DNA of 64,000 nt, taken from positions 1-64,000 of the IMG/VR virus record IMGVR_UViG_3300045919_000305; one strand, written 5' to 3'. The notes beneath the pieces are model-generated. The model ran no database searches and had not been told where the DNA came from. It saw only the letters and a list, made by a program, of their open reading frames with translations. Below are positions 9,933 through 47,071 of the stretch, piece after piece. Origin of the DNA: a virus. How positions within the stretch are numbered: position 1 is the first letter of the stretch; each line of letters opens with the position of its first letter. The position numbers were made by a program, and so were the translations under genes.

Positions 9933-10283
9933 ATGTTGGAAAAAGTAGCGTTATGCGATTGTATAGGTAAGACCTTAAAATATGCCGATCTCGAAGATGA
10001 GTACGGTATCTTCACTTTTACAGATGGTACTTTCACAATTCTCCGCGCTACGGCACCCTACGAAGATGCTTGTGAAATTAACATATGTAACGATTACGAA
10101 GACTACGTGATGGATTGCTATTTCTCCGCTGCTGGAATCGCTTCGGAAGAAGAATTAGCTTTAGCTAGGCAAGAAAGGATTCGCATGGCGGCTGAAACAC
10201 TAGAACGGATGGTAAAGGAAAGAGAGTTAAGGGAATACGAGCGCCTTAAAGCGATATACGAAACTAAGATTCAATCCGAGTAG
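9933..10283 (+). CDS. hypothetical acidic/coiled-coil protein
   Basis: ATG 9933 six nt after GGAG (track start TTG 9915 lacks an RBS). Confidence 0.55.
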   Translation: MLEKVALCDCIGKTLKYADLEDEYGIFTFTDGTFTILRATAPYEDACEINICNDYEDYVMDCYFSAAGIASEEELALARQERIRMAAETLERMVKERELREYERLKAIYETKIQSE

Positions 10284-10513
10284 GGCGTATCCCTAACCCC
10301 GAAGTCAGGCAGAGGTGTGGGGATTGTGAAAAACACTGCCAGTAATCGCCGGTATCCTCTCTTTGAGGCTTCCTTTGCGGGTGAGATTACCGAGTTGTTC
10401 ACGAGACGAACAGCTAATCCTAACTTAGTGTTTTGGCCCTTACTGGTAATAGGGTTTAAAACAGTAAGCGGTTGTGCACGAAGTATAACTCAAACCCGGA
10501 TTGGTTTGCCTGC

Positions 10514-10582
10514 TTACTTTATTTTAGAAAGCCCTCCCGAGTCAACAAATGGGAAGTGGCGGACGAGGGTTTTCTAAAGTAG
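10514..10582 (+). repeat. long hairpin A (conserved outer stem TTACTTTATTTTAGAAA / TTTCTAAAGTAG)
   Basis: Outer arms plus inner stem GCCCTC/GAGGGT; preceded by small hairpin CAAACC-CGGAT-GGTTTG. Confidence 0.7.
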
Positions 10583-10700
10583 CGATGTGGAAAGTAGACA
10601 CATGGCGTATAGAGGGCAATAGGCACACGCGGTCTTACCTTTATTGGCGGTGGATAATCCGGCTGTAGGGACACCCACTAGACCCCGGGTGACGACGGGG

Positions 10701-10777
10701 CTACTTTATTTTAGAAAAAGTTGCGGGACGGCTGCAAGCTATCCATTACTACAGCCCCGCAGCTTTTTCTAAAGTAG
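10701..10777 (+). repeat. long hairpin B (same outer stem, different self-complementary interior)
   Basis: CTACTTTATTTTAGAAAAAGTTGCGGG..GCTG / CAGCCCCGCAGCTTTTTCTAAAGTAG; preceded by small hairpin CCCCG-N8-CGGGG. Confidence 0.7.
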
Positions 10778-10942
10778 TCAAAGAGCTTTTAGCGACGACT
10801 GCACCAGGGGTTTGACGTGCAGGGCTTAGGGTATTGGAAAAGGCTTAATGTGGGCGTACCGGGCTCCCCGACGGTTGGAAACCACAGCGTGTTACCGTTA
10901 ACCTTATAATGGCAAGAATCCTGGCTACTTTACTAAATACCG

Positions 10943-10966
10943 CCGATCTCAAAAGATCGGTTTTTT
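10943..10966 (+). terminator. rho-independent terminator
   Basis: CCGATCT-CAAA-AGATCGG followed by TTTTTT. Confidence 0.7.
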
Positions 10967-11007
10967 AACGACCGCGATCCGTCGGCTTCGGATAGTTTAG
11001 AGGAAAT

Positions 11008-11565
11008 ATGAAAATGAAAAGAATATTATTATCATGCGTTTTGTTACTTGCAAGTATGTCTATATATGCTACACCGGAAACATTAACCTTAAACCCACCA
11101 CTAAACAATAAAATATTTGCAGCTTCTGGCTCAATTGTTGGAACCGGTTTAATAGATTCTTATATATTGGAGTGCCCTTTAGCAACATCAACAGGAATAC
11201 GAATTGTTCCTGCTGTGACACTGCTAGATTTAAATTCTGCATATGTGCCAACAAATTTGTCTGTTTCAGTTTCTGGCTCGCTTGGAAAATTCAGCACAAT
11301 CAGAACTACCGGGTATTCTACGCTAGCATCGGCAGCAGTAACTACTTCCGGAACTGCTATAGTGACTGTTAGCAAAACAGGTGCGGACGTTTTATACTCA
11401 TTAGTGTTTAAATGTAAAACAAACCCAACCGCCGCACAAATTGCAGCAGGAGCTATCGCCGGAACATTGACTGCATTAGAACTAATGCCAGCTAATAACG
11501 GAACCCCAATAGACAAAACAAAAGGCCATGTATTGACTCAATTTAAGCAAGATTCTGCGGAGTAA
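11008..11565 (+). CDS. exported protein (signal peptide), unknown function
   Basis: MKMKRILLSCVLLLASMSIYA/TPE signal peptide; GAGG upstream; beta-rich Thr/Ser/Ala mature part with two Cys. Confidence 0.7.
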   Translation: MKMKRILLSCVLLLASMSIYATPETLTLNPPLNNKIFAASGSIVGTGLIDSYILECPLATSTGIRIVPAVTLLDLNSAYVPTNLSVSVSGSLGKFSTIRTTGYSTLASAAVTTSGTAIVTVSKTGADVLYSLVFKCKTNPTAAQIAAGAIAGTLTALELMPANNGTPIDKTKGHVLTQFKQDSAE

Positions 11566-11570
11566 TAGTA

Positions 11571-13523
11571 ATGAAAAATTTATTATCGTTATTATTATTT
11601 TTATGGGGGTCTGCTTTATTAGCTGCACCTTGTCAAATAACTTTTACACCAAGGTCGCAGTATGGGTATACCCCGCAATATATGTCAGATCAGTTAACCG
11701 CCGCTGGATGGACTGTTCTAGGTGTTAGTGCCCCAATATTAAATGGCACTGTTGAGTACCGTAATGTAACCGCTACACGTTCAGACTTTACTTACACCTA
11801 TAGTGGCGTTACTTATAACATGTGCCAATTGCTTAATCGTTGGGATATAGCCCCGGCAAGCGAAAGACAGGCATTAGATGACGCAATAGGAACTTACCTA
11901 AACTTTACGATGCCGATAGGAGTTACAGTTGATAGAGTTAGTTATGATTTGGGATCTGATGGTGCTGAATCGCAAAATTATGTAGCTTATGCGGATTTTA
12001 TCAATAATGAAAGTAATGAGTGGGTCACTAATCCAGCAAAATTCGGATATACGCTTAAGGATTATCATAGTAATAATGGTCTTGCTGCATCAGCTACAGA
12101 AACATTGACTTACATTGATACGTCTGACGCGCATACCGTTGACTATCCATTTAGTATTTTCGGTCATTTGTTGATACCAACAGCCCTTGACCCAGCTACT
12201 CTTGATTTTTTCAGAAATTTTCTTCCAAGTGCAACTCATGCGAGTCAAATGATCGCATTAAGTTTACAGGTCGAAGGCTTAAAGATTTATAATAAAGCCG
12301 TAAGATATGACTACGGTAATACGCTTACTTCTATGGGTGAAAGTGTTGATGCCTCACGAGTAAAGCCTGCCGTTATGGTATTGGGGTTTTATCCTAAAGG
12401 TGATGCTGATACCCAAGCAGCAATTAACATTAAGGAAAATAAACTTAATGCTTCCCAGGTTGTCGTGGTTGAACCCGCAAGGAATCAGATACTTAAAACT
12501 TATGCAGGTGGAAGTAAGTGTGTTATAGGTAATGTTTATATACCGCCAAAAGATTTAATAGTGCATAAAACTCATGCTGCTTGTTTCACACAAGCTGAAT
12601 ACTTTGCGTCTAATGCTAATGCAATTCCTTACGTAGATTATTGGCCTATAACTCAAGCTTATATAGACGAGCTTAACAATGGTGATTATTTTGCCCATGC
12701 TGGAGGCGACAATCCAAAGTCTTTAACGGTGGGTTTTATATCTCCTTGGGATGGCACACTAGGAAACTATCCTGATCCAAGAGTTGACTTTGTATGTAAC
12801 TTTGGTTCTTTTTCTGCATCTTCATCAAGTCTTTGCGCTGGAGCAGTAGGTGCACTGGCAACGGTTATAGTTAAAGAGAATCCTAGCTGGACAGCCCAAT
12901 GTGTAATTGATGCGTTTATTGGAGGTACTAAGCAATTCAACAGGACATCTTCAAAAAGTGCTGGCGTTGGGTATGGAGTTTTTAACGCGGATGCTGTTAT
13001 TAACTACTCAGCTCAAAGGAAGAATGATTGCGGTACTAACGGTCTAATTGATGCAGACGGCGTTGAGCTTGGCGCTTTTGCCGAAGCTTACCCACAAAAC
13101 GCTACGAGCTTATACGGGATACCTAATCAGCAATTGTTTGGGGCTTACCCTTATAACTTCGCCAGCACATTAAGCAATAGCTACAACCAAGCTATATCTA
13201 ACGGTTGTACAGGACAGGGAAGCGTTGCTAAAGTTTGGAGACGTAGACTGGACCCCATAACCAATACTTATATTTATGAAGTTGGAACAGTTAGCGATGT
13301 AATTACTTGGCCAGGTAGTTATATTGAATGTGACGACTCGCCACAAGGAAGGCCAACAGCTAGGCATTTTAGTATCTTTTATAATAAATCCCAAATAACG
13401 GATGCTAACGGGTGTAACATTCGATATAAATCGCTATATGGGCAATGCAGTAATTCGGTTAACGTAAGAATGGGCGACCCTTCTTACCGTGCTACAAATT
13501 TTTATCACGGAAAATTGCTTTAA
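11571..13523 (+). CDS. exported 650-aa protein, unknown function
   Basis: MKNLLSLLLFLWGSALLA/AP signal peptide; starts 6 nt after the previous stop; many Cys; AT-rich codon usage. Confidence 0.7.
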   Translation: MKNLLSLLLFLWGSALLAAPCQITFTPRSQYGYTPQYMSDQLTAAGWTVLGVSAPILNGTVEYRNVTATRSDFTYTYSGVTYNMCQLLNRWDIAPASERQALDDAIGTYLNFTMPIGVTVDRVSYDLGSDGAESQNYVAYADFINNESNEWVTNPAKFGYTLKDYHSNNGLAASATETLTYIDTSDAHTVDYPFSIFGHLLIPTALDPATLDFFRNFLPSATHASQMIALSLQVEGLKIYNKAVRYDYGNTLTSMGESVDASRVKPAVMVLGFYPKGDADTQAAINIKENKLNASQVVVVEPARNQILKTYAGGSKCVIGNVYIPPKDLIVHKTHAACFTQAEYFASNANAIPYVDYWPITQAYIDELNNGDYFAHAGGDNPKSLTVGFISPWDGTLGNYPDPRVDFVCNFGSFSASSSSLCAGAVGALATVIVKENPSWTAQCVIDAFIGGTKQFNRTSSKSAGVGYGVFNADAVINYSAQRKNDCGTNGLIDADGVELGAFAEAYPQNATSLYGIPNQQLFGAYPYNFASTLSNSYNQAISNGCTGQGSVAKVWRRRLDPITNTYIYEVGTVSDVITWPGSYIECDDSPQGRPTARHFSIFYNKSQITDANGCNIRYKSLYGQCSNSVNVRMGDPSYRATNFYHGKLL

Positions 13524-13531
13524 TTAAACCC

Positions 13532-13562
13532 AGCGCCAAGGATGGCGCTATTTAACTTTTTT
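13532..13562 (+). terminator. rho-independent terminator
   Basis: AGCGCCA-AGGA-TGGCGCT then ATTTAACTTTTTT. Confidence 0.6.
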
Positions 13563-13593
13563 ATCCTCACTAACCCTAAAACTGGACACCGCT

Positions 13594-14124
13594 ATGAAAA
13601 GAGTAATTTTAACCGCTGTACCTTTATTGTTAAACGCTTGCGCCTATAATTCCACTATGGGAGTTAATGACCGTTTCCAGGTAGCTTCGACGGCCAGCTT
13701 CTTTGCGCCTTCTGTAACTACGGTAATCGATACACAAAACCCTAATGCCTTACCCCCCACCTTCGCCGGCCCGTCCATAGTCGGACAAGTTGCCAACGCA
13801 GCCGGTACAGTAGCCGCCGGCGCGTTTATTGGTAATGGTCTTAGCAAGAACCACGGCACCAGTGTTAATCAAAGCGGTGGCGGAGCCGTTGCGACAGCAA
13901 AGGGGGGCAGCTCTTCAGCCCTCGGAGTAGGCGGTCAGGGCGGCGCTGGCGGGAACGGAGGGAATGCGTTGAGTGAGGCTTACAGTAATAGCCATTCATC
14001 GGTGCGGTCGAATATGGAATCCGTTAACACCAATATTAACGCAAACGAAAACATCAATAGTAGTTCAAGTAGTTCTCCCCCTACCCAGAGCGGTAATGGT
14101 GAAGGCCACAGTTCTGACAATTAA
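13594..14124 (+). CDS. lipoprotein with Gly/Asn/Ser-rich low-complexity region
   Basis: MKRVILTAVPLLLNAC: signal peptide ending in a lipobox-like LNAC; mature part has GGGAVATAKGGSSSALGVGGQGGAGGNGGN and an Asn/Ser-rich tail. Confidence 0.65.
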   Translation: MKRVILTAVPLLLNACAYNSTMGVNDRFQVASTASFFAPSVTTVIDTQNPNALPPTFAGPSIVGQVANAAGTVAAGAFIGNGLSKNHGTSVNQSGGGAVATAKGGSSSALGVGGQGGAGGNGGNALSEAYSNSHSSVRSNMESVNTNINANENINSSSSSSPPTQSGNGEGHSSDN

Positions 14125-14146
14125 AACGTAATACCTATAAACCTAT

Positions 14147-14183
14147 CCTAGAGTGTAGCTTATCTAAAATGTTATACTCTAGG
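14147..14183 (+). promoter_or_regulatory. 8-bp inverted repeat between the lipoprotein gene and the 607-aa gene
   Basis: CCTAGAGT (14147-14154) / ACTCTAGG (14176-14183); overlaps a TATACT box; no U-tract. Confidence 0.3.
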
Positions 14184-14211
14184 GTCTTCAACTTTAAAAC
14201 CTGAGATACCT

Positions 14212-16035
14212 ATGCGAAAAATAAGCCTAACCCTTTTATGCCTGTCTTTAGCTGTATTATTACAGCCCGAAGCCAAGGCGACTGTTTACGGCCCGGTAGA
14301 GAACTTCGATGTTACCAATACCACAGGGCAAGATGCGCACGGCTTCGAAATCGAAGCGAGAGACGTACATAAATCCGATATTTCATCAATCTTTGGCGAT
14401 CCCAGCCGCTTTGGTTTGGATCAAGTAGAGCGTTACGATGCGCCTATCGTTACTGATTTTACTGATGCTACCGGATTCGGGGTGCGTATACGCTATGCTG
14501 CGGCATTTAACGGTGTTTGGTCTGCTACTACCCCAAGTGGGCAGTTACCCTATAGCCCGGCGGATTCCTGCTGGAAATACGGTGATCCTAACTACAACAC
14601 GACAACTTATCCCTGTGATCATTTTGGAGTAAGCTTTAACGTTGCTCCAACGACCGTAAAGTATTCATGGTTGGTTGAGCAGACGCCGGGTGCATTAACT
14701 CCGACTGGTGTTTACGTGCCAAGTCCAGTATTCAATATTGTGACCCCAGCACAGGTAATACCCCCCGCTGTTGTAGGCAATCCCCCCATCGTTATAGCAC
14801 CTCCGGTAATACAAGTTCAATTACCCGCACCGGAATTACCCCCAGCGGCACAGTTCGGAACCCCTTTCTGGGTTAAGGTAAAATCTACTTGCCTGAATAA
14901 TAACATCGGTGTAGAAGCCCTCGTGAAAGACGGTAAAGATATGGCCGTTATGGAGACTGAGACAGAATGGCAGATATTTCAAGAAGATGTGGGCAACCCA
15001 GCCTCAAAATTCCTGGATATGACGGCTACCAAGCTGCACAATTGCCCGGCTGGTGAAGCCTACACAATTGACGTATTCGAATACGCGGGCTTACTGACGG
15101 CTGAAGGTCAAATAGACCTACAAGGTGCTTCTGATACCCCCGTAATAGATCCACCCACGTTAGGTAAATGGCTGGGCGCAAACAATGTCGGTATTAACTA
15201 TGCAGGCGGTGTGCCTGATGTATTGGGCGGAGTAGTTGCACCGTTACCAACACCAGCTCCTACGCCTTCTCCGACACCGGCACCTGTGGCTCAAGCGTGT
15301 TCAGGCACTGACGAAGTAATCACTAGTACCGCCGGCGCAGCGAGAAACAGCAACATCGCTTTATTTGACGGAACCCTTATCGCGGCTCCTTATATTGGCA
15401 CGGCCAGTAACTTAGTCGCTATTCCAGCGGCGGGAGTAGCCTACGCTTTTAACGGGGTAGCCTTTGGTACGTTCAACGCCGGTGATTTGATCACTTACAG
15501 TGGGTCTTATGGCGCGGCATTGAATGCTAACGGAACGCCAATGTGGTGTATCCCTGCCGCCGTAACTGTGACAGCAGCTATCGCCCCAACGCCTGTGCCA
15601 ACGCCTGTGCCAACGCCTGTGCCAACGCCTGTGCCAACGCCTGTGCCAACACCTGTGCCAACACCTGTGCCAACACCTGTGCCAACACCTGTGCCAACAC
15701 CTGTGCCAACACCTGTGCCAACGCCTGTGCCAACACCTGTGCCAACACCTGTGCCAACACCTGTGCCAACGCCTGTGCCAACGCCTGTGCCAACACCAGT
15801 AGGTTGTGCGCTAGGAACAGGTAAAGTATCCTCACCGAATGCTAAAGCAACAGCAGTTGCAGGTAATGTGATTACCGTTGCCGGTAAGCAATACACAGTG
15901 GCTGATTGTGCGGTTATTAACTACAAAGGCCATGCGAAGTCAATCGCTGTAGGGTTTAGTGTTGAAGTGAAAGCCGGTTATGCTCTAAACGGCGTCACTT
16001 ATGCTACTAAGCTAACCGTTGATGACGGCAAGTAA
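14212..16035 (+). CDS. exported modular protein with PT-rich linkers
   Basis: [25 protein letters not shown] signal peptide. About 330-aa N-domain, [15 protein letters not shown] linker, about 100-aa two-Cys domain, (PTPV)18, about 78-aa two-Cys C-domain. Confidence 0.75.
15586..15801 (+). repeat. 18 tandem copies of a 12-bp unit CCAAC[G/A]CCTGTG (PTPV)
   Basis: Counted directly; copies differ only at the Thr wobble base (G5 A6 G1 A3 G2) plus a degenerate last copy CCAACACCAGTA. Confidence 0.95.
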
Positions 16036-16054: not shown

Positions 16055-16081
16055 GAAAGGCGCTATTAGCGCCTTTCTTTT
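16055..16081. terminator. bidirectional rho-independent terminator between convergent units
   Basis: GAAAGGCGCT-ATT-AGCGCCTTTC followed by TTTT on + ; CAGTTTTG follows on the - strand. Confidence 0.75.
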
Positions 16082-16108: not shown

Positions 16109-16252
16109 ATGTGGTATAAATTAACCCCTAAAGCGGGGTGTCTTATTTGTTTTGCCGCAATGGGCATCAGCGCATTCAATAGCCGTTGGGAGTCTCTAGT
16201 TATAGCCTCAAGCTTATTAATCGTCTACGCGATTATGGTTAAAATTACTTAA
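16109..16252 (+). CDS. small membrane protein (47 aa), tentative
   Basis: ATG 16109 after AAAGGG; MWYKLTPKAGCLICFAAMGISAF...LLIVYAIMV; lies downstream of the terminator. Confidence 0.25.
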   Translation: MWYKLTPKAGCLICFAAMGISAFNSRWESLVIASSLLIVYAIMVKIT

Positions 16253-16255
16253 AAC

Positions 16256-19200
16256 CTAATCCCCATTCTCGTCCCGCAATCGGTTCTGCTCATAGAGGTA
16301 CGTTAATCTAGGATTCACAGCGTACCCTCTAATCCCTTTTTCCTGCTTGTTTTTAGCCGTTCTAACCACCGATTTGTGGATGCTTTCATAAGTAACCGGC
16401 CAAGTTGGGTGTTTAGCCTGCCAACGCGCCAACTCTTCTTGAGGGACGGGTTCGCCGTTTGCGATCGCTTTTTGAACTTTGTTAACCAGTTTTTGCCGCG
16501 CATCGGAGATCGCAGCTTCCGCGGCTTTGTTATACCCGCGTTCAGCGTACAGCACTTCCATATTAGAGCTGCCCAATCCGATCGCTTGGAATAGCACTTC
16601 CATAGCGGAGGCGTCTTTCAGTTGCTCACCGTTCATGCTTTCGTAACCGTGTTGCGCTAAGCGGATAGCTTTCAGCCCGTCGCCCAAAGCTTTAGGCGTT
16701 GCACTCTCTACGCCGCGTAGTACTTCACCATCGGCCATCATTTTTGCACCGTCAGCGATCTTTTTAATCATACCGCCGAATGGTCCAGCCACTTGAGATA
16801 AGTATTCGGTAGCTGCGTCTTTGCCTTCCAGATCCTTCAAAGGCTCTTGGAAGAAGACATTGCTCAAGTTCATACGGGATGCCAAGTTAACAGGCGTTAA
16901 AGCGTTGCCCAGACCCTTGATCATCGCGGTAGCAAACGTTTCACCGCCCAACTCAGTTAACCCTACCCGTAATTCTTTTTCAATGTCCCACGGCTCATCA
17001 TCGTCGGATGCTGCATTGCCAATTACATTGATTACCATCGAGATTGCGCCCATCAACGGCATACCGAATAAACCAGCCGCCGCACCTTGCATGGCGAAGA
17101 GCGCCATTAACGATCTAGCCGCATTTTGTGCAGTTTCTTTGGCTTCCGCTTTGGCCGCTTTCTCTTCGTCCGTGGTTTCTGGCATTTTTTTCCAGCCTGA
17201 GAACGCATCTGCAGCGGTTTTCCCCCACAGATAAAGCATCGCCTGTGGGTACTTTTTATACTGCATGACCACACCGGCTACCGGTCCTCGGAAGATCCGA
17301 GCCGCGTTTTCAGTCGAGTAGTCCCCGTGTGCATCGTTGTTGACTTTACGAGCGTAATCCATAGCCGCTAAATGGTTGTTGATATCGCCTTGTAACGCTA
17401 AATCATAAGCCGCCATCAGGGTAATTTCACGGTTCATACGCTCGCCGTGGTGGAACATCCAGCCCATTTTTTTGTTAAATTCTTGCAATCGTCCGCCGTA
17501 ATCTTCCCCCTCACGGCCAATACCTAACACATCGAAGAAGTTGGTTCGAGAAACGTCCCCTTCTTCTTTGAAGTTTCGCAGGGCAGATAGCCTACTCCCT
17601 ATTCTATCCATTTCCGCCCGATCGCCGTTATGCGCTTGCAGGTAATCCAACCGCTGCCGCATGATAGTAGAGATCGACGAGTTGCCGTCTTCGTCACGGT
17701 AAAGGTACTCACCATTCGCGTCTTTTTTGTTAATTCCGATAACTGCCTTTAGGAATTCGTTACGTGTTTTGCCAAAAGCCTTAGCCGTTTCCTTAACGCC
17801 GTATTTTCCAGCAGTAATGGGCATGGCTACCACAGGGGTTTGGAATAAGTTCACTAAACCACTGGATAAACCAAAACCCATTGTCATAACGAAATCGAAC
17901 TGACGAATAGCCGAAGCGATTTGGTCCATACCCGTACTCGGCGTGTTTACCATCGCGTTGTAGGTTTTGGTTAATTCCTGCAAAACGTTGGCCGCTTTTT
18001 CCCGATCTTTAGGGGGGATTAATTTAGCCGCTTCGAGTGCTTGCGTGTTTTTGTCCTCAACTCGGTGCAGCGACTCCAGCACGTCCTCTGACGCACCGAA
18101 CTTGCGGCGTAGTTTGATAGCTTCTTCGTAGACTTGTTTCTCTTTCAGGTCGTCGGTTTCCGCCAATAGAGTTTCTAAGGCGTCCTCTTCGTTCAGTTCG
18201 TCCCAATTTGCTTGCAGCATGGCCGCAGCTTTAGTTTCGGCATCAACCTGATCGCGTAAAGAAGTTCTCGAAGCGATATCCAGCGCGCGTCTACCTTCGA
18301 CCAAGACTTGTGCCATTTCACGGCCCTCGGTCATGTTAGCAAGCTGAGAAGCGCCGTGGTGGATGGTATTGGCGAAAGCCCGCATCGCATCTTCATCGAA
18401 CCCTAATGTACCTTTACGGTGCATGGAGTTGTGACGCACGGATATGTCCGGCAAAGTAGCCAGATACATTTGGTGGATCTCGTCTTGCAGCGCTTTGGAA
18501 ATATCCGGAGCGATATCGGCACCCGCTATTTTAGAGTGGATATCCTTCAAGAAGTTATCAGATACCGCGTCACCTATTTGCGAGTTCTGGATATCACTCA
18601 GTGAAGTGCCTTGATCGTTTTCGTTGACCGTGCCGCCGTCTTTGATAAAAGCTTTTAACGCTCTGTCCCTAGCGGGAGTCGAACTGTAGGTTAGAAACCA
18701 CTTCTCGCCTTGCGCATCTTTGCCGTAAAACCAATGATCTCCATACCGTTTTAATGGCGCGTAATACCAGGACAACGATTGCGATTCGAACTTAGACCGA
18801 AGCTGAGCGATCAACGCCGCGCCGGTTTGAGCATCCAAGATAGACTCTTCGATTCGGTTTTCTAAAGCCTCTAGGCGCTGGTTGAATATCTCAGTGTGAA
18901 GCGCATAAGTACCCGCGTAAATGTCTTTAACCGAAGGGTGTTGGGCAAATAGCGTTTCGTAAGCCGGTCTTAAATGTGCGTAAGCCTGACGGCGTAAAAT
19001 GTTTGAATCTTTCCAGCCGTTGCTTGCGCGGATTTGTGTTTGCTTTTGATCAATCTCGCGTAATTTTGCCAAAAACTGCGCCGCCTTATCTTGCGAAGCA
19101 AACGTCGCTGAGTTCTTGTCAGAGAATAACGCGCCGGCGCTTTCTGCAGCCGCTTTGATGTAGCTTCGGCTCTGACCGTTAAATTCGGTCATTGAATAGG

Positions 19201-22200
19201 CTTTAAACCCGCTTGGGGTCGGCTCTACACCTAACCAATCTTTCGACACGTTGATATCTCGCAAGGTAGATTGCTGCATCAAGCGACCAGTTTCTTTGCG
19301 GGCAGGTACCGGCAAGGCTTTCCATTTGATCGAGGTCAACTGGTTTGCTTTGTGTAAATAAGGATCCACCATCGCGCGACGGCGTTGCATCGCTTCTTCG
19401 TAAGCTTTCAGCCCCGGCAGATATTTTTTAGCAATTTCTATAATCTGCCGAACAGACAGCACGGCCAATTTTTCTTTAGCCACAGTGTTTGAGAAGTCTT
19501 CAAAAGCGTTCAGCATTTCGACTGTAGTGGCTCGTGCTGCACCTTCTGGTAACTGCTCCACCGCTTCCCGGATACTGGTAGGGGCGCTAAACATCGGCAT
19601 CCCTTCTGAAAGTATTTTGGCTTTCATTTCGGGCGTGATGATCAGGGCAGGTTGGGACTTAAAACCTTTCTCTTCCAGTTCATATATTGATGAGCGCGCA
19701 TCAGCAGCGGCATCGTAATTCGGAAAATTACCAGATTTTCGGGTTTCCGTTTTCTTATCCGCTAAGTAGTAATCCCCAACCCCGTTAGATGTAGGCCCTT
19801 CCGCCAGAATGGTTATTTCTGGCCCCATACTTCCGGTAGATTTCACCCAACTGGATTTTATCTTCCCACCCATCTTCCGCGCAATCTCATTCGCCGCTTG
19901 GGTAATGAGTGCGGGTTTACCTTGAGCGTTTAAGCCGTTTTCATCGCCATACATAGCTTGCGTCCAATCACCGCCGACTTTTAGATCAAGGCCCGATAAC
20001 TCTTTGGCCACTGGTGAAACTTCACCCTCTGCTTCAAAACCTACCGATTCTTCAGTGCTCTGGCCCTCGTCGTTAAGTATCTTATCCGCTACCCCTTTGC
20101 CCAGGTACTCTTCGAGTTGTTCGGGTGTTTGATTAAATCGGGCGTCTCTATCGTTATCGTTTTTATCAAAGATAACGATATCAAATTTACCATCACGATT
20201 CACATACCGGATTCGATTAATGTGTTGGGATAAATCGTACCGATCCGCTTGTTGATCACCCGTTGTCCACGCTACCGAATCACTGCCGTTATCAATCGCT
20301 TGGCTGATGGCCTTTTTCATTAACAAAGAGATATAGGCGTTCGTTGCCTTGTTATTTGAATCCGTGACGAAGGGTGCGGGAGGAACACCGAACTCGGGCA
20401 ACCGTTCCAACCTTCGTATCTCATCTTGGATAACGACCCTTTCGGTTTGCAGCGTATCGAATTCCTCGTCCACATCATCGGGAAACCTGAGCGCCAATTC
20501 GCGTACACGCTTGTGTAATTCTTGATTTCTATTTTTCAACTCGACGAGCTTCAGCTCTTCGGTATTCGTTAAGGGGCGATTAAACCCCGATTTCCGTCCC
20601 GCTTGACTTCGTTGCGACTGCACTTCTTCAAGGAACAAGACTTTATTACCGTTCGCATCAATTCGGGTATTGTGTCGAATCCAGCCAATTTGCTTTCCTT
20701 GCCCAACATCACCAAAATGCGTTGTATCGTGTTGGTTATGGGGTTCTGTAGTCGGAATTGTAACGACGAGTTCTCGGTAATCTGTGCCGCCGGGTAGGGT
20801 AAGTTGCGCGGAATTGTGCTTGGCTTCTGTAAATTCCGCATTTGTAGATACGTTGTGAAATTCATCGATAGCATCGAGCCATTTTTTCGCTTGCCCTTGA
20901 AACTTTTCTGGGAGGTCATACGACTCTAAATCCCCGTCCTCCAAAGCGTAATACAGGTCATCATCAAAATATTCTTTACCGTGTATCTGTAACGGTAGAT
21001 TTTCTTTTCTAATTCCGTCAAAAAGTTCTTTCGCATACCCATCGGCTTCCGCTTTGAGCGCTTGCTTCCGCTCTTCTGGAGAAATCCCACCCAACATCAC
21101 ATCCTCAACCTTCACGCCATTAGCGTCCAGAAATTCACTAACTTGTGCCCGTGTAACTTTACCAGAAAGCGAATCTAACCAATCGGTAATCCCCGACCAG
21201 TAAATTTCATCTTTCTTTACGTCAAATCTAGGCGCGTTGGCTACCAGCCAGACTTTAACTTGTTGCGCATTGCCGAATACCTTTTCCGGTGCCTTTTCAA
21301 TCGCTTTGCTTAAAGCAGAATAGAAGCGCGGTGCGGGTTCTGAAGTTTGCGCACTAAACATCGGTGCTGCTTCAATATCCGCAGCACTAAAAGGGCTAGA
21401 TTGGATTCCACGACCTGTTCGCCCCTCGGTTTCTTCCGCAGTCCGTTGACCTTCCCAAAGCGGCACCCCACCCCAACGTTTAGTATTGAGTGCAGGCACA
21501 ATTGAAACTACAGAATAAACTTGGCCGCCGTTTAAAGCGTCTTTCTGCTTGCTGACAATTAAAGCTTGTTGTAGCCTTGAAGATCGGAACACATAGTGCC
21601 CTCGGTCTTGGAATATTTGATCAAAGCCTTTAGCAATTGAGGAAACGTGACGTGCGTAATTTTCCGCAACTTCGCCGGTGTAGCCCGGAACCATCCGGCG
21701 GTCGCCTTCCCGTACCGCGTTATCGTGAATGTGCGTAATGCCAAAACCTTTATGCTCGGCAGTCGCTTTACCGACGCGTAATTTAATCGGTAAACGCTCA
21801 ACGCCTTTAGCTACGGCACTAGCCGGAGTCATGGCGATAGCACCGTTCATATTGCCTTCGTAAGCTGGTGTTTCAGGAACGATGAAATCTTCAACCGATT
21901 TACGGATACCGTGCAGACGACGGGACTCCATGACTTCACTATTAAATTCGCGTGGGGCGTTTAAATCCGTTTTTATTGCGGATTGCAGACTCGCTTTTAG
22001 CAAATCGTGTAAATCGTTTTCCGTCATGGTACCCGCGATAAAGCTGCGGCCTAATCCATGAGCGACCAAGAATGATTTGATTTGGGATAATAGGCGTTTA
22101 AACCAACCCGCTTGCGGTGCGTATTCACCTAATTTAGCGATAACTTCCGCGATAAACGGCTCGCTACCTTCGCCCATGTGCGCATAAGGTTTGTTGCCAT

Positions 22201-25200
22201 TGGCGTCAGTGCCATTCAGCACTTTATTCCATGTCAGATTAGCCAGCGATCCGGGGATCTTGGCTTGATTAGTGATTTGGTTTTGCAGCGCTTGGTAGGC
22301 TTTCGTGCCCAGCATCCGACGAAGGTTGAAATGCTCCCCGATCTCGTGCAGAACTACAGCATTCAATCGTTTTTTGGGGATCGCGTTAATATCAAGAAAC
22401 GCCTTCCCCTTTAAATAAACTGCTTCTGCAGCCGAATATTTTTCCGGATTGACTGGCCAGCCTTCTTTGCCTTGGGTGAAATTCAGCACGCCGCTTTCTA
22501 CTAAACGGGCTAACCCTGGGCCGTACGCTTCGCCTAAATGCGCGATCGCTTCTTCAGGTGAGTTAAAACGGTCGTTTAGTTGTTGCTGAACGTCCGGTTC
22601 TTTAAGTAACGCTTCCGCTATTTTGGATTGCGTTGTCTCAACAGGCCCTGCGTTAGTAGTTGTTGCTCCAGCTCCGCCTCTTTTTCGTCGTGGTGCCTTT
22701 TCAGCTCTAGGAGGCGCTTGCGGTGCTGCCCCATTATCCTCGCTGGTTGGTCGGCTAACTCCGACATCCCCAGCCGTTCCAGTCTCGTTTCGTCTGACAT
22801 ACTCTTCGCCTCGTTTACCAGCGTCAAGTTCCCGGCTGGATCGTTCAAAAATAGTGGATAGCTCTGTTCCGGGTATTATAGGGCTTTGGCCTAGGTAAAG
22901 GCCAACTCCATTTGGCTTTTCAGCTCCAGGCTTAGATTTCGGGTGCGCTATTTGGTCTAAACCCGTTTGTTTAGTGTATTCCGCGACGCGTTGCTTAGCA
23001 TTCTGCATCGCTTGGTTTATAGACGCATCTGACCCACCAGTGATCACCGCACTCAGCTCATCGCCGCCATGCCGTATTAATACCGCGTTGCTACCGGCTT
23101 TCTGCATTTCGTCGGCAAAAATGTCACTAATGTCGCGGAATACCGGATTCGCTATCGCGTGGTTGTTGTTAAAATGCGAGTTCAAACCACCTAAATTAGC
23201 AATATCCGCATCGACAAAGTGAGCCGTTTCGCCGGTATCCGCAACGTGTTTCATCACCGCTTCAATGGTGGGTTCCTTATCGTGCGGTAAATGGAAACCC
23301 GTAACAGCGTCCATGTCTTCTTTAGGAACGATTTTTTCTAGTGCCGCTTCATCCGTAAGCCCCGCATCACGGGCAAGCTGCCGGCGTTCCGCTACCCGCT
23401 TTTCGCTAGGTGACATGAAATCCGTCTGCCTGCGATCTTGAGGGGAGCGTTCGGTTATTTCTTGCCCTTCTTGCGATGGTTGTTCTTGCGGGGTTGCGTT
23501 CTGGCTTTGGTCATTTAGTTGCTCTGGTTGTAGTGAGGATGTTTCGGATGGTGCTTGTTCAATATTCCCGTTCCCTTGTCCGCTTGGTTCCACTCCGCTG
23601 CTGTCGATTGTGGGATTTCCACCCGCTTTGCGAATTCCGGGTTGTGCGCTGCCGCCGCCATCAGACGGGCTTGGGCTGGACTCTTGGAGGGCGTTTTGGT
23701 TCTCCGTTAATTGCGCTCGGCGTTCACGCTCGGCGGTAATTAGTTGTTTCTGTTCGCTAGTTGCGGCCCGCTGACGGAATAAATTAGTTAGCGCAGCATC
23801 GTCCAAAGTCTGTATGGTAGTTTGGAAAGCTTCAGATTGCGGTTGGGTAATTCCGGCATCTAGGGCGGCGTTGGCTGCCCTGTTCAAAACACCATCGGGT
23901 GCAGCGGCTAACTGCTCTTTAATGGGGGCAGCGGCAGCCTCTGACGCCGCTTGTATTTGCTCTTCAGGCGTCGGTGGTGTTCTGGAAGCGATGTGCATTT
24001 CCATTGCGTCCAACACGGTTTGGGCCGAATCCCCAGGTTTAGTCGGGATTTCCAATTTCGCGGCAGCATCGGCTAATCGTTTAGTAACGACTTGACCTAA
24101 TCCAACAGAACTATACGCTTTCTTATAGTTATCTATAAAGTTTTGACTTTCATCAAGAACGGCTTGCTCGTGCTCGTCCGGAGGCTGAAAACCCTGTTCT
24201 TCTTGGGCGCCCGGTAATACTTCCGCCGCCGGTGTTTCTGATTCTTGCGGCATATAATCCGCCAACATCGTATCGATATCCGCAGGTTCTGCAGGCAAGT
24301 TACGTTGCTGCTCAATGATCGCTTGTTCTTCAGGGGTTGTTTCAGGCGTTACGGGTTGCGCATGGGTTAAAGCGCCTGTCGGTGCGCCCATACCAAAACC
24401 AGCTACCGCGCCAAGGGCTGCGGCATTGCCTACCCCTTCCATCGCATCTTTACCCAAAGCGACGTTAGAAGCCGCCTGTTCTTGGCCGGATTGCGCAGTT
24501 TCTTGTGCTGCTTCGACTCCGCCCCCTTCCAAAGCTCGGCGTGCGGCGTTCTTAGTAGTCGGTGCAATGGCGTTTTGGCCGCCGATTAGCGCGGTGTTTA
24601 CGTCCCCGACGCCTAATTTATTGGCTATTTTTCCGAAACCGCCCGTAATTGCGCCCGTTGCGGCACCGCTTCCCGCTAAAATTGCGGTCTGCTCCGGGGT
24701 TAATAAACCGTTTTCCGTTTGTTGCCGCACTTGTTCGACGTTTTGCCCTGCCGTTACGCCACCTTCGCCAATTGCGCCAGCGGCTAGGGGACTCAATGCG
24801 GGCGCCGCTTTCATCACGCCTTTAGCAATGCCCGCACCGCCTAACATACTCGGTGCGGATTCTAAAATCGTGTGGCCAGCAACGGAGGGGTTTTCTGCGA
24901 CGGCTTTTAGTGTAGGGACAAAACCCTCAGCATTTTGAACGTTTTCAAAAGCTTGTTTCTGTGCGGGGGAATAATTTTCGGAAAGAATATCTTTAGCGCG
25001 TTTAAAATCGACCCCATTTTCTTGCAACGCTTTACCAACACGTCCGCCGGTAGGGATATCCGCTAAACCGACTGCGGTTTCTGGAACTCCAATAGCGCCT
25101 TTGAGTGCGGTAATCCCAACGTCTTTGGCACGATCCCCGAAGGATGTTTCAGGGGCAGGTTGCTCGGGTTTCGGTAAGTAATCCGCCAAAATCGTATCAA

Positions 25201-25270
25201 CATCAGGGGCTTGATCTTTTGGCATATAATCAGCCAACATAGAATCGATATCTGGTGCGGTATCCGCCAT
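16256..25270 (-). CDS. 3004-aa polyvalent-type virion/ejection protein
   Basis: Single uninterrupted 9-kb ORF ending the late operon. Gly/Ala-rich hydrophobic N-region, GGDEF-like module (aa about 652-800), PLKRYG (PLxRFG-type) motif at nt 18740-18757, hydrophobic segments near the C-terminus. Confidence 0.7.
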   Translation of the reverse strand: MADTAPDIDSMLADYMPKDQAPDVDTILADYLPKPEQPAPETSFGDRAKDVGITALKGAIGVPETAVGLADIPTGGRVGKALQENGVDFKRAKDILSENYSPAQKQAFENVQNAEGFVPTLKAVAENPSVAGHTILESAPSMLGGAGIAKGVMKAAPALSPLAAGAIGEGGVTAGQNVEQVRQQTENGLLTPEQTAILAGSGAATGAITGGFGKIANKLGVGDVNTALIGGQNAIAPTTKNAARRALEGGGVEAAQETAQSGQEQAASNVALGKDAMEGVGNAAALGAVAGFGMGAPTGALTHAQPVTPETTPEEQAIIEQQRNLPAEPADIDTMLADYMPQESETPAAEVLPGAQEEQGFQPPDEHEQAVLDESQNFIDNYKKAYSSVGLGQVVTKRLADAAAKLEIPTKPGDSAQTVLDAMEMHIASRTPPTPEEQIQAASEAAAAPIKEQLAAAPDGVLNRAANAALDAGITQPQSEAFQTTIQTLDDAALTNLFRQRAATSEQKQLITAERERRAQLTENQNALQESSPSPSDGGGSAQPGIRKAGGNPTIDSSGVEPSGQGNGNIEQAPSETSSLQPEQLNDQSQNATPQEQPSQEGQEITERSPQDRRQTDFMSPSEKRVAERRQLARDAGLTDEAALEKIVPKEDMDAVTGFHLPHDKEPTIEAVMKHVADTGETAHFVDADIANLGGLNSHFNNNHAIANPVFRDISDIFADEMQKAGSNAVLIRHGGDELSAVITGGSDASINQAMQNAKQRVAEYTKQTGLDQIAHPKSKPGAEKPNGVGLYLGQSPIIPGTELSTIFERSSRELDAGKRGEEYVRRNETGTAGDVGVSRPTSEDNGAAPQAPPRAEKAPRRKRGGAGATTTNAGPVETTQSKIAEALLKEPDVQQQLNDRFNSPEEAIAHLGEAYGPGLARLVESGVLNFTQGKEGWPVNPEKYSAAEAVYLKGKAFLDINAIPKKRLNAVVLHEIGEHFNLRRMLGTKAYQALQNQITNQAKIPGSLANLTWNKVLNGTDANGNKPYAHMGEGSEPFIAEVIAKLGEYAPQAGWFKRLLSQIKSFLVAHGLGRSFIAGTMTENDLHDLLKASLQSAIKTDLNAPREFNSEVMESRRLHGIRKSVEDFIVPETPAYEGNMNGAIAMTPASAVAKGVERLPIKLRVGKATAEHKGFGITHIHDNAVREGDRRMVPGYTGEVAENYARHVSSIAKGFDQIFQDRGHYVFRSSRLQQALIVSKQKDALNGGQVYSVVSIVPALNTKRWGGVPLWEGQRTAEETEGRTGRGIQSSPFSAADIEAAPMFSAQTSEPAPRFYSALSKAIEKAPEKVFGNAQQVKVWLVANAPRFDVKKDEIYWSGITDWLDSLSGKVTRAQVSEFLDANGVKVEDVMLGGISPEERKQALKAEADGYAKELFDGIRKENLPLQIHGKEYFDDDLYYALEDGDLESYDLPEKFQGQAKKWLDAIDEFHNVSTNAEFTEAKHNSAQLTLPGGTDYRELVVTIPTTEPHNQHDTTHFGDVGQGKQIGWIRHNTRIDANGNKVLFLEEVQSQRSQAGRKSGFNRPLTNTEELKLVELKNRNQELHKRVRELALRFPDDVDEEFDTLQTERVVIQDEIRRLERLPEFGVPPAPFVTDSNNKATNAYISLLMKKAISQAIDNGSDSVAWTTGDQQADRYDLSQHINRIRYVNRDGKFDIVIFDKNDNDRDARFNQTPEQLEEYLGKGVADKILNDEGQSTEESVGFEAEGEVSPVAKELSGLDLKVGGDWTQAMYGDENGLNAQGKPALITQAANEIARKMGGKIKSSWVKSTGSMGPEITILAEGPTSNGVGDYYLADKKTETRKSGNFPNYDAAADARSSIYELEEKGFKSQPALIITPEMKAKILSEGMPMFSAPTSIREAVEQLPEGAARATTVEMLNAFEDFSNTVAKEKLAVLSVRQIIEIAKKYLPGLKAYEEAMQRRRAMVDPYLHKANQLTSIKWKALPVPARKETGRLMQQSTLRDINVSKDWLGVEPTPSGFKAYSMTEFNGQSRSYIKAAAESAGALFSDKNSATFASQDKAAQFLAKLREIDQKQTQIRASNGWKDSNILRRQAYAHLRPAYETLFAQHPSVKDIYAGTYALHTEIFNQRLEALENRIEESILDAQTGAALIAQLRSKFESQSLSWYYAPLKRYGDHWFYGKDAQGEKWFLTYSSTPARDRALKAFIKDGGTVNENDQGTSLSDIQNSQIGDAVSDNFLKDIHSKIAGADIAPDISKALQDEIHQMYLATLPDISVRHNSMHRKGTLGFDEDAMRAFANTIHHGASQLANMTEGREMAQVLVEGRRALDIASRTSLRDQVDAETKAAAMLQANWDELNEEDALETLLAETDDLKEKQVYEEAIKLRRKFGASEDVLESLHRVEDKNTQALEAAKLIPPKDREKAANVLQELTKTYNAMVNTPSTGMDQIASAIRQFDFVMTMGFGLSSGLVNLFQTPVVAMPITAGKYGVKETAKAFGKTRNEFLKAVIGINKKDANGEYLYRDEDGNSSISTIMRQRLDYLQAHNGDRAEMDRIGSRLSALRNFKEEGDVSRTNFFDVLGIGREGEDYGGRLQEFNKKMGWMFHHGERMNREITLMAAYDLALQGDINNHLAAMDYARKVNNDAHGDYSTENAARIFRGPVAGVVMQYKKYPQAMLYLWGKTAADAFSGWKKMPETTDEEKAAKAEAKETAQNAARSLMALFAMQGAAAGLFGMPLMGAISMVINVIGNAASDDDEPWDIEKELRVGLTELGGETFATAMIKGLGNALTPVNLASRMNLSNVFFQEPLKDLEGKDAATEYLSQVAGPFGGMIKKIADGAKMMADGEVLRGVESATPKALGDGLKAIRLAQHGYESMNGEQLKDASAMEVLFQAIGLGSSNMEVLYAERGYNKAAEAAISDARQKLVNKVQKAIANGEPVPQEELARWQAKHPTWPVTYESIHKSVVRTAKNKQEKGIRGYAVNPRLTYLYEQNRLRDENGD

Positions 25271-46522: not shown

Positions 46523-47071
46523 TCACGCTAAAGCCCTCAACAAAGCTTCGTATCGCGCTTGGCGTTCTTCTAAGCCGTTTGTACCGCCATTTATGCGCCG
46601 TGTTATCAACTGGAAACGTTTTTCATCGGCTAAGGTGTTCAAATCGTGATCCTGCCAAAAAACACCGGCTACGCGAAAAGCGACTTCGGGTGTTAAGGCC
46701 AGATCCGGATTAACTTCTAAAGGGAGTTTTAAAATGTTCCCATATTTCTTGTAATTACCACGTCCAGTTAACTGTATACCGCCACGGCCACGGAACCGTT
46801 TGCCGTCACCTGGGTGGGTGTTTCCCAATTCTGCGGCTTTCTCAGAAGGGGGCTCATAAGCCGCTTGCGCGCCTTTCCCATCCCATAGCTCTCTTAAAAA
46901 TTGGAAATCCAAAGTTTCATGTGCCACTTGCGCTAAAAAAGCCGCTACTCGTAGCTTAGTGTTGATCTCAAATTCGTCCATAGCCGCTTGAATAAACGGC
47001 AAATAGGTATTAATAGGTGCTTTTCTAGCCGCAGGTATAGCGGTCAGTAACTGTTCTTTAGTAATCCTCAT
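46523..47071 (-). CDS. endolysin, glycoside hydrolase family 19 (chitinase-like)
   Basis: AAFLAQVAHETLDF ... LGNTHPGDGKRFRGRGGIQLTGRGNYKKYG ... RRINGGTNGLEERQ are the GH19 lysin signature blocks. Confidence 0.85.
   Translation of the reverse strand: MRITKEQLLTAIPAARKAPINTYLPFIQAAMDEFEINTKLRVAAFLAQVAHETLDFQFLRELWDGKGAQAAYEPPSEKAAELGNTHPGDGKRFRGRGGIQLTGRGNYKKYGNILKLPLEVNPDLALTPEVAFRVAGVFWQDHDLNTLADEKRFQLITRRINGGTNGLEERQARYEALLRALA

Follow-up and report, generated by a model that had tools for sequence, protein, structure and literature searches.

We analysed a 64,000-nucleotide stretch of viral DNA (IMG/VR virus record IMGVR_UViG_3300045919_000305, positions 1 to 64,000; hereafter the window), in which four adjacent genes for predicted exported proteins, here called P1 to P4, lie between the early genes of a phage and a convergent block of late genes. 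We find that this locus is a hypervariable, moron-like accessory site for envelope or extracellular proteins, and that its mosaic structure includes a recurrent gene pair, P1-P2, whose larger product is probably a divergent subtilase. The genes and the signals that delimit them are as follows.

10942-10972, plus strand: terminator-like hairpin closing the early block, upstream of P1 (stem 10942-10949/10954-10961, extendable to 10965, then U6)
10977-10995, plus strand: small hairpin ATCCG-TCGGCTT-CGGAT, ~25 nt upstream of the P1 start, holding CCGTCGG (10979-10985)
11008-11565, plus strand: P1, 185 aa
11571-13523, plus strand: P2, 650 aa
13532-13553, plus strand: hairpin AGCGCCA-AGGA-TGGCGCT, 9 nt 3' of the P2 stop, the 3' limit of the P1-P2 unit
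13594-14124, plus strand: P3, 176 aa
14212-16035, plus strand: P4, 607 aa
16055-16077, both strands: bidirectional terminator between P4 and the convergent late operon (10-bp stem with 6 G-C pairs, U-runs on both sides)

Export is the property common to the four proteins. We applied a crude rule for signal peptides (an n-region with positive charge; a hydrophobic core of 10 residues averaging at least 2.0 on the Kyte-Doolittle scale; acidic residues excluded; small residues at -1 and -3) to the 78 nonoverlapping open reading frames (ORFs) of at least 60 aa in the window, and P1, P2, P3, and P4 passed and none else, which bears out the claim of a first-pass annotation, made from the letters of the window, that all four carry N-terminal export signals, the lipobox of P3 being noncanonical. 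By this heuristic scan and by conservation among homologues, where their predicted signal peptides are kept, P1, P2, and P4 have recognizable n-, h-, and c-regions. An extracytoplasmic location of these three proteins is further supported by invariant cysteines (C56 and C136 in P1; C317, C338, C444, and C487 in P2; C120 and C135 in the N-terminal domain of P4), and P2 C21 and C85 are jointly missing from one homologue (P0125), as expected of a disulfide pair. None of the four matches a PHROGs structural family or any of 50,697 GenBank phages, consistent with the earlier proposal of an accessory, moron-like unit with exported products.

We consider it extremely improbable that P1 to P4 are instead virion or tail components whose hydrophobic N termini are anchors or start-codon artefacts. 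The genes do adjoin the structural operon, and in one other phage (L006, below) the P2 homologue is followed by a GDSL/SGNH-like, possibly tail-associated, protein; yet canonical n-h-c signal peptides are kept in all homologues, chromosomal bacterial ones included, the conserved cysteine pairs indicate an oxidizing compartment, PHROG structural matches are absent, and the strand is opposite to that of the structural operon.

Base composition divides the four genes. The GC content of P1 is 0.39 and that of P2 0.40 in a window of 48% GC, and their GC at third codon positions (GC3) is 0.26 and 0.29, more than 4 SD under the genome mean, 14 other genes having 0.48±0.05, so that the first two genes are indeed AT-richer, as had been claimed, whereas P3 (0.48) and P4 (0.42) are like the remaining genome. 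Stable hairpins were found at each of the places (before, within, and after the cassette; 10942, 13532, and 16055; z -3.1 to -5.1) where terminators had been proposed. The first (10942-10965; -10.9 kcal/mol, z -4.1) was equalled by 0 of 200 shuffles, and the last (16055-16077) has -17.0 kcal/mol on the plus strand and -16.5 kcal/mol on the minus strand (z -4.3 and -5.1). The middle one (13532-13549; -11.7 kcal/mol, z -3.1) is a weak intrinsic terminator, the weakest of the three, because its U-run is displaced and begins 8 nt downstream.

The P1-P2 Pair and Its Boundaries

Relatives of the pair are few, and they keep its organization. A phmmer search through all 1.84 billion representative proteins retrieved four P2 homologues (P0122-P0125; E 6.5e-81 to 5.7e-34), 30-39% identical to P2, and when 5.8 billion protein clusters were searched by a word index, P2 and P1 each matched only itself. 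IMG/VR, JGI metagenome contigs, and 185,579 GTDB species genomes were scanned with patterns that required conserved peptides, so that distant members may have been missed; these scans found no relatives of P2, and tblastn found none of the pair in the 50,697 GenBank phages. In three loci, L006, L008, and L010, a P1 homologue ends 9-28 nt upstream of the P2 homologue (L006 has two P1 copies) and P4 is absent; in a fourth context, a 2.5-kb JGI contig, a truncated small ORF ends 8 nt upstream. The gap is 5 nt in the window, where the P2 Shine-Dalgarno sequence GGAG overlaps the final P1 codons, and the order is P1 then P2 in every locus.

All contexts with visible neighbours are phage, with DNA polymerase A, a PD-(D/E)XK nuclease, a DUF3987 primase-like protein, spanins, and a GH108 endolysin in L006; ERF, SSB, and a GH19 endolysin in L008; and a holin and a GH108 endolysin in L010. 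These carriers have 36-41% GC, and there the pair has the local composition. The pair is thus compositionally foreign to the window, recurrent in three unrelated low-GC phages, and probably present in the fourth fragment; being native-like at 36-41% GC and deviant in the 48% GC window, it would appear to have been imported from a lower-GC phage lineage.

In L006, L008, and L010 the pair adjoins lysis genes. It could, then, be a lysis accessory, a protease degrading an outer layer (S-layer or outer-membrane tethers) much as LysB and spanins act on other layers, and the holin, endolysin, and spanin genes beside it in these phages argue for such a role. We nevertheless judge this unlikely: the window pair lies not by lysis genes but ~30 kb from the endolysin gene (46523-47071), it runs on the early-gene strand rather than the late one, L006 has its own embedded i-spanin/o-spanin pair, and L011, a sister of the window phage described below, does without the pair. 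As to the surroundings in L006, the P2 homologue is followed (12046-13464, plus strand) by a gene for a 472-aa protein without a signal peptide and with weak GDSL/SGNH esterase matches (E 4e-4), which may be a tail-associated deacetylase, and then by a lysis cassette with an embedded o-spanin.

Short motifs are conserved on both sides of the pair. C[AC]GTCGG stands 25-45 nt upstream of the P1 ATG in four of the four loci with DNA; in the window it lies within the hairpin at 10977-10995, after which a strong ribosome-binding site, GAGGAAAT, precedes P1. The hairpins around this 5' motif fold no better than shuffles, so that the motif is kept while the fold is thermodynamically weak. On the other side, the hairpin at 13532 contains a conserved 12-mer, GCCAAGGATGGC (13535-13546), and the 3' motif GCCAAGGAYGGC flanks the pair though the proteins are only 22-39% identical. 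Loop and inner stem consist of the 10-mer CCAAGGAYGG, which occurs just once in the 64-kb window (at 13536, 13 nt past the stop codon of P2) and once each in L006 and L008, at the same place relative to P2; the outer pair varies, with C-G here, A-T in L006, T·T in L008, and G-C in L011. The conservation of boundary motifs at both ends suggests that P1-P2 travel as a delimited module.

The same GCCAAGGACGGC hairpin occurs in L011 (11739-11750, minus strand), 10 nt after the stop of a 616-aa exported ORFan (L011 11759-13609, minus strand). We rejected this ORFan as a second subtilase or P2 homologue (hhalign probability 0.3-0.6%; no PDB matches).

Subtilase-Like Features of P2 and Possible Roles of P1

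Mature P2 has a mass of ~68 kDa, and the following regions can be distinguished in its gene.

11571-11627, plus strand: P2 signal peptide
11628-11900, plus strand: N-terminal alpha/beta domain, aa 20-110
12078-13010, plus strand: subtilase-like region, aa ~170-480
12117-12119, 12237-12239, 12483-12485, and 12828-12830, plus strand: candidate catalytic residues D183, H223, N305, and S420, respectively
13038-13520, plus strand: variable, Cys-containing C-terminal region, aa ~490-650

D183, H223, A224, A229, N305, and S418-420 are among the 57 columns that are invariant in five of five sequences, the order Asp-His-Asn-Ser is kept, and D183, H223, N305, and S420 align with D32, H64 or H67, N155, and S221 of subtilases. 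A profile of the five sequences, compared with 177,635 PDB sequences, gave 35 matches, 34 of which are subtilisin-type proteases (best E 0.0028); in this alignment S420 falls on Ser221 and N305 on the oxyanion Asn155, and the family stretch SSS[ML]C..LA.VIVKEHP.FT is aligned to GTSMA.PHVAGAAALILSKHPNWT. The NCBIfam model TIGR03921, which describes mycosin, a subtilase of type VII secretion, independently matches three of the five members (E 1.1e-5, 4.7e-4, and 0.069), at 12-25 bits against a cut-off of 279. Comparison by hhalign with subtilisin BPN', subtilisin Carlsberg, and proteinase K gave E-values of 3.5e-4 to 1.5e-5 (probability 37-57%) and, when extended, placed TYID183TS on VAVID32SG and hence D183 on Asp32; we treat these values as a lead only and not as a curated test. 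The catalytic His of subtilases lies in the motif H64-G-T-x-V-A-G, which the family pattern H-A-[ST]-x-[MI]-x-A resembles by eye, with small residues at +1 and +6, and in a low-confidence model of P2 a helix begins at residue 223, as in subtilisin. Because the family pattern copies the subtilase His motif and because of this helix start, we read H223 as the candidate catalytic His, with an ambiguity of three residues.

Several observations weigh against the assignment. Pfam PF00082 (Peptidase_S8) matches 0 of the 5 family members, even at E ≤10, and P2 alone has no match in NCBIfam, nor in Pfam, PHROG, PADLOC, or the PDB. The similarity statistics are all weak and concentrated on the Ser-helix, and hhalign puts H223 on His67, three residues from the catalytic His64. 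The AlphaFold2 model built from the five-sequence alignment has a pLDDT of 35 and does not confirm the fold; its top Foldseek matches are subtilisins, Apa1, and MycP1, at nonsignificant E-values of 0.2-1 over ~65 columns. The absent Pfam S8 match, the modest profile-profile probability, the ambiguous His, and the poor model would all suit a P2 that is no protease, its subtilisin-like stretch being convergent or a relic within a noncatalytic binding or structural exported protein. We give this reading a small but real chance, given that five sequences otherwise 25-34% identical all keep the four candidate catalytic residues, correctly ordered and plausibly spaced, and that the independent weak matches (subtilisins, mycosin, Apa1, and MycP1) all fall in one clan. 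Subtilase homology of P2 is therefore probable: on these sequence comparisons we are fairly confident that P2 belongs to the subtilase clan, and we lean, with more reserve, towards its being catalytically active.

Set beside the subtilases (MEROPS S8, clan SB: subtilisin BPN', proteinase K, mycosin MycP), P2 shares the ID[TS], H-A-[ST]-x-[MI]-x-A, and SSS[ML] motifs, a post-Ser helix LAxVIVKEHPxFT that resembles AALILSKHPNWT, predicted secretion, and an additional N-terminal domain. That domain (aa 20-110) is the sole moderately confident part of the model, an alpha/beta structure with weak ferredoxin-like matches, and since subtilase prodomains share an alpha/beta ferredoxin-like architecture, the model hints at a prodomain. 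Unlike subtilases, P2 is beyond the reach of PF00082, has ~50 additional residues between Asn and Ser, including two invariant cysteines, has a C-terminal region of ~160 residues that varies among the homologues, has an obligatory small gene upstream, and is so far confined to phages. A literature search on phage-borne exported subtilases found nothing relevant.

P1, the product of that small gene, has the signal peptide MKMKRILLSCVLLLASMSIYA, with cleavage before TP, and its homologues are 22-30% identical to it, with the two cysteines invariant and, in most of them, a C-terminal motif DxTKGHVxxQxK. It has no match in Pfam, PHROG, NCBIfam, the PDB, or GenBank phages, and, similarity to the C-terminal domain of P2 being absent, P1 was rejected as a duplicate of that domain. 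We infer that P1 is an exported partner of P2 because of its constant position, translational coupling, export signal, and conserved disulfide cysteines; as candidate roles, it may serve P2 as a targeting subunit, act on it in trans as an inhibitor or chaperone, or be its substrate.

A subtilase-like enzyme beside a small signal-peptide protein, both predicted to be exported to the periplasm, recalls SubAB, the AB5 subtilase cytotoxin of Shiga-toxigenic Escherichia coli, in which the gene for the ~35-kDa A subunit precedes that for SubB, an OB-fold pentamer. By analogy, P1-P2 might be a binary AB-type secreted toxin, with P2 as the subtilase subunit and P1 as an oligomeric binding subunit, assembled in the periplasm, released at lysis, and aimed at eukaryotic grazers or bacterial competitors. 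The two tightly coupled genes with Sec signals and conserved disulfide cysteines would fit, as would the subtilase-like partner and the position by lysis genes in L006, L008, and L010, which is that of stx in lambdoid phages; the large terminase subunit (TerL) of the window also resembles that of Stx-converting phages. Even so, we regard such a toxin as improbable. The order, small then large, is the opposite of subAB in all loci; the P1 family profile finds nothing in the PDB beyond a chance match to MRT4 (E 1.1) and hence no likeness to SubB, with which P1 shares no sequence similarity; SubA, which is absent among the P2 matches, is only about half as large as P2 and no closer to it than subtilisins are; the window pair is ~30 kb from the endolysin gene; the host is environmental; and nothing points to a P1 oligomer, pentameric or other.

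P4, P3, and the Sister Phage

The sister phage L011 (IMGVR_UViG_3300048672_001143), which has a 3099-aa version of the giant late protein with a C terminus 83% identical to the window's, carries P4 at the same junction (67% amino acid identity) and lacks P1-P3, window positions 10759-14286 having no counterpart there. The DNA common to both phages comprises the early genes, part of the noncoding segment 10277-10411, hairpin fragments, P4, and the giant gene. Before P4, L011 encodes an unrelated exported 304-aa low-complexity protein, and between P4 and the giant gene it has the exported 616-aa protein and a 71-aa gene (minus strand). The junction thus consists of two variable slots around a conserved P4, and each occupant of at least 100 aa is predicted to be exported.

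P4 itself is built of three domains joined by two linkers.

14212-14280, plus strand: P4 signal peptide
14281-15216, plus strand: all-beta N-terminal domain, aa 24-335
aa 344-358, plus strand: short Pro/Thr/Ala/Ser-rich linker
15286-15576, plus strand: middle "ACSGTDE" domain, aa 359-455
15586-15801, plus strand: (PTPV)n linker
15586-15797, plus strand: 12-bp tandem repeat CCAACACCTGTG encoding (PTPV)n, 17.7 copies, 97% matching
15802-16032, plus strand: DUF5666-like C-terminal domain

L011 carries a similar PTPV array, and variation of the array length is likely. Most of the 1371 matches in a P4 protein search, and a match to internalin K, are spurious and due to the PTPV repeat; so is the PADLOC match to REase_II, the sole one, and an antiphage defence system was rejected accordingly.

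The genuine P4 homologues (P0002-P0013; E 2.5e-119 to 2.5e-57) place P4, on sequence grounds, in a large family of secreted bacterial proteins that has no name, as a member carried by a phage. One of them, P0003 (907 aa; E 9e-84), has all three P4 domains with He_PIG Ig repeats between them, and P4 is a compact version in which Pro/Thr-rich linkers replace these repeats. The N-terminal domain occurs at 292 places in GTDB species-representative genomes, with the best matches in Methylococcaceae, Methylobacter, and Crenothrix (44-48% identity), followed by Burkholderiales, Zoogloea, Thiobacillus, Acidobacteriota, and others; in IMG/VR it is found in the sister phage only. This domain of ~310 aa, with the motifs NFDVxNx and EWQxxQxD, defines a large bacterial family without a Pfam model (GTDB loci L012-L091).

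The domain takes the form of short PEP-CTERM proteins in Betaproteobacteria and of He_PIG fusions in Methylococcaceae and Acidobacteriota. Many relatives are 350-420 aa long, and an ending of VPEP, transmembrane segment, and RRR is present in 32 of 73 under a strict definition and in ~43 of 73 with variants. Exosortases direct PEP-CTERM proteins to the outside of the cell, and these proteins can tie exopolysaccharide to cells, in flocs (PMC12188702, PMC9850573). Compared with the PEP-CTERM and He_PIG (PF05345) surface proteins of Methylococcaceae and Burkholderiales, P4 has a homologous N-terminal domain (35-48% identity), and in its other two domains it corresponds to the proteins of Methylococcaceae (P0003 and the Methylomonas protein P0005, for example); unlike them, it lacks He_PIG repeats, has Pro/Thr linkers, chiefly the 17.7-copy PTPV array, and is phage-encoded. 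From these relatives we infer that P4 is a secreted beta-rich surface or matrix protein. Three points tell against this label: it rests on relatives; P4 has no PEP-CTERM tail and ends ...KLTVDDGK in the DUF5666-like domain; and its N-terminal domain, modelled as all-beta with fair quality (pLDDT 76, pTM 0.75), has no significant Foldseek match in the PDB or BFVD, where TM-scores are ~0.2, to tandem beta-sandwich proteins. The structural check that the first-pass annotation had proposed therefore yielded a usable model for this domain and a poor one for P2, with significant matches for neither.

No neighbour of the bacterial P4 relatives is conserved across 73 loci, the most frequent being a two-component system (9-13 of 73). 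In Methylomonas sp. AM2-LC (CP157005.1; L003 5609-13030), the gene for the P4-type protein P0005 comes immediately after those for a HupE/UreJ-domain protein and a TonB-dependent receptor; this metal-uptake-like neighbourhood was rejected as a general context, since the other loci examined do not share it.

Gly, Ser, Asn, and Ala are abundant in P3, which bears a lipobox-like LLNA/C, read as L-N-A-C; in the consensus, [LVI][ASTVI][GAS]C, Asn at -2 has no place, which makes the lipobox noncanonical. No family library or phage gave a match, and P3 shows no similarity to the 304-aa exported low-complexity protein of L011. It does resemble the lipoprotein that follows P2 in L010, which has a low-complexity tail and FFAPxV ~20 residues past the lipobox Cys (z 3.6, p ~0.003 against composition-preserving shuffles; BLASTP E 0.33), so that P3 may be a third member of the P1-P2 unit; its GC3 of 0.48, unlike that of P1 and P2, argues otherwise. 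T5 Llp and phi80/N15 Cor are small phage exclusion lipoproteins, and P3 is likened to them by description only, in that it is a small, lipoprotein-like protein of the envelope which a phage encodes at an accessory site; it is larger, of low complexity, and probably disordered, and differs in its noncanonical lipobox. The first-pass annotation had recognized none of the four proteins; this stands for P1 and P3, which have no recognized family, whereas P2 is probably a divergent subtilase and P4 belongs to a widespread, if unnamed, family.

Because P1-P2 occur without P4 in L006, L008, and L010, because P4 occurs without P1-P3 in L011, and because GC3 is split between the genes, the locus is not one system but a mosaic, whose units, probably three and no fewer than two, were acquired independently. 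The first-pass annotation had favoured a single functional system, a view we do not uphold, the hairpin at 13532 separating units of different origin; the co-occurrence it proposed as a check holds for P1-P2, which recur together, and fails for P4, which is distributed separately. One four-component envelope or extracellular machine would have in its favour that all four proteins are predicted to be exported, that their genes are adjacent on the same strand and encode the sole signal-peptide proteins in the window, and that read-through of the weak middle hairpin is plausible. Besides the separate occurrence of its parts, the 292 bacterial loci with the P4 N-terminal domain, and the unequal GC3 of P1/P2 and P3/P4, the lack of conserved neighbours around the bacterial P4 relatives makes such a machine highly unlikely.

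The phage is a podophage, a distant relative of Bcep22-type phages, and its host is probably a Methylococcaceae methanotroph; its TerL is ~46% identical to that of Ralstonia/Burkholderia Bcep22-type podophages, and the same phage is present in one JGI metagenome and one independent SRA run. The early block (plus strand; HTH_8 regulator, methylase, SNF2 helicase, NinX, DHHA1, and TSCPD) ends at 10283, and the cassette is transcribed, as had been noted, against the late block (16256-60728, minus strand, 44 kb), which encodes TerS, TerL, structural proteins, the endolysin, and, at its end, the 3004-aa giant protein (16256-25270, minus strand). The latter has a weak LPD39 (polyvalent-protein) match and a GGDEF-like "RHGGDELSAV" seen by eye; as in Bcep22-type phages, it is probably a polyvalent protein that is injected or carried in the virion. 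An HNH endonuclease gene (40629-41585, minus strand; phrog_3377, E 7e-62) lies inside the structural module. A further ORF lies next to the cassette:

16109-16252, plus strand: 47-aa hydrophobic ORF of uncertain status, between the bidirectional terminator and the stop codon of the 3004-aa gene; a called gene in the JGI record, with no counterpart in L011

Upstream of the cassette, a 725-bp ORF-poor gap (10284-11007) contains two similar long hairpins, 10510-10590 (-27.1 kcal/mol, z -3.1) and 10688-10782 (-36.8 kcal/mol, z -5.4), both made on CTACTTTATTTTAGAAA ... TTTCTAAAGTAG. Segments 10277-10411, 10576-10603, and 10725-10758 are 80-96% identical to L011, and 10275-10344 gives a full-length but subthreshold match to the Rfam Proteo-phage-1 RNA (RF03044; 21.5 bits against a gathering score of 42, E 0.24). 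These elements may be phage noncoding RNAs or regulatory elements.

Possible Roles of a Variable Export Locus

The locus resembles the morons and lysogenic-conversion cassettes of phages, of which bor and lom of lambda and the HK97-type morons are examples and whose definition reportedly goes back to Juhala, Hendrix and colleagues. As in these, extra genes stand between conserved modules within terminators, their products are exported or envelope proteins, P1-P2 have a deviant base composition, and P1-P3 are absent from a close relative. It differs in that P4 is lineage-conserved and of normal composition, that P1-P2 recur in unrelated phages with conserved boundary motifs, and that no sigma-70 promoter of its own was found. 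Accessory loci of the moron kind have been described before, as have secreted subtilases; what is new is the P1-P2 family, together with its confinement to phages, the obligate partnership, and the motifs at its ends.

The explanation we prefer, and hold as a whole to be reasonably likely, is a hypervariable export locus composed of a protease pair, the separate P3, and a host-type P4. Unit A (5' motif, P1, P2, and 3' hairpin; 10977-13553) would be a mobile two-gene operon from a lower-GC phage lineage. P2 would be exported to the periplasm and fold there with disulfides, and would most likely be an active, very divergent subtilisin-like serine protease with the triad D183/H223/S420 and the oxyanion residue N305, its N-terminal alpha/beta domain being a possible prodomain and its fast-evolving C-terminal domain a possible means of target recognition. 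P1, translationally coupled and an obligate exported partner, would bind P2 as a targeting subunit or as an inhibitor or chaperone. Together they might cleave host envelope or surface proteins, and in this way, for instance, destroy or mask a receptor protein while infection is under way; another possibility is that they are released at lysis. Unit B would be P3, an orphan lipoprotein-like disordered protein, and unit C would be P4, a gene that the phage lineage took from the host clade and has kept, and whose product alters the surface of the infected or lysogenic cell.

Candidate effects of the locus include receptor destruction or masking, exclusion, altered aggregation, aid to release, and toxicity after lysis. 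Among the roles that had been considered, a secreted enzyme with a partner fits P1-P2 best, and adhesion or a matrix function fits P4 best. For the pair we favour remodelling of the envelope or surface during infection, because P2 homologues were not found in the 185,579 bacterial species genomes, where widespread lysogenic-conversion genes would be expected as prophage genes, because P1 and the C-terminal region of P2 evolve fast, and because the pair is oriented with the early genes.

Certain findings sit less well with this explanation. The scan for sigma-70-like sites, and for such sites only, found none at 10966-11007 or upstream of P3 on the plus strand, and no integrase or repressor was found among the phage proteins tested. 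The possible tie of P3 to P1-P2 (p ~0.003, same position in L010) may blur the unit boundary, and for P1, whose proposed role is conjectural, relatives of known function were not detected.

A bolder version, which we put forward as a long shot, is that P1-P2, possibly with a P3-like lipoprotein, form a self-contained module that moves between unrelated phages, delimited by C[AC]GTCGG and the GCCAAGGAYGGC hairpin, and constitute a hitherto unrecognized two-component exported protease weapon on a new, phage-restricted branch of the subtilase clan. Such a weapon might consist of an enzyme that destroys receptors or remodels the surface, together with a subunit that targets or inhibits it, or might be a toxin of the AB type freed at lysis.

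These findings overturn no current concept; their value lies in a testable new family and in the correction of the single-system reading. P1-P2 are an exported family found in phages only so far and unseen by annotation libraries, with five members among 1.84 billion representative proteins, and offer a tractable candidate for protease function at the phage-host or phage-environment interface, while their boundary motifs give an example of possible module exchange between phages. The phages of methane-oxidizing and other uncultured environmental bacteria are known almost from sequence only, and little is known of their effects on the host surface. Here, a lineage keeps a host-derived P4 and swaps other exported genes around it, which could affect aggregation, adsorption, and grazing in methane-cycling communities.

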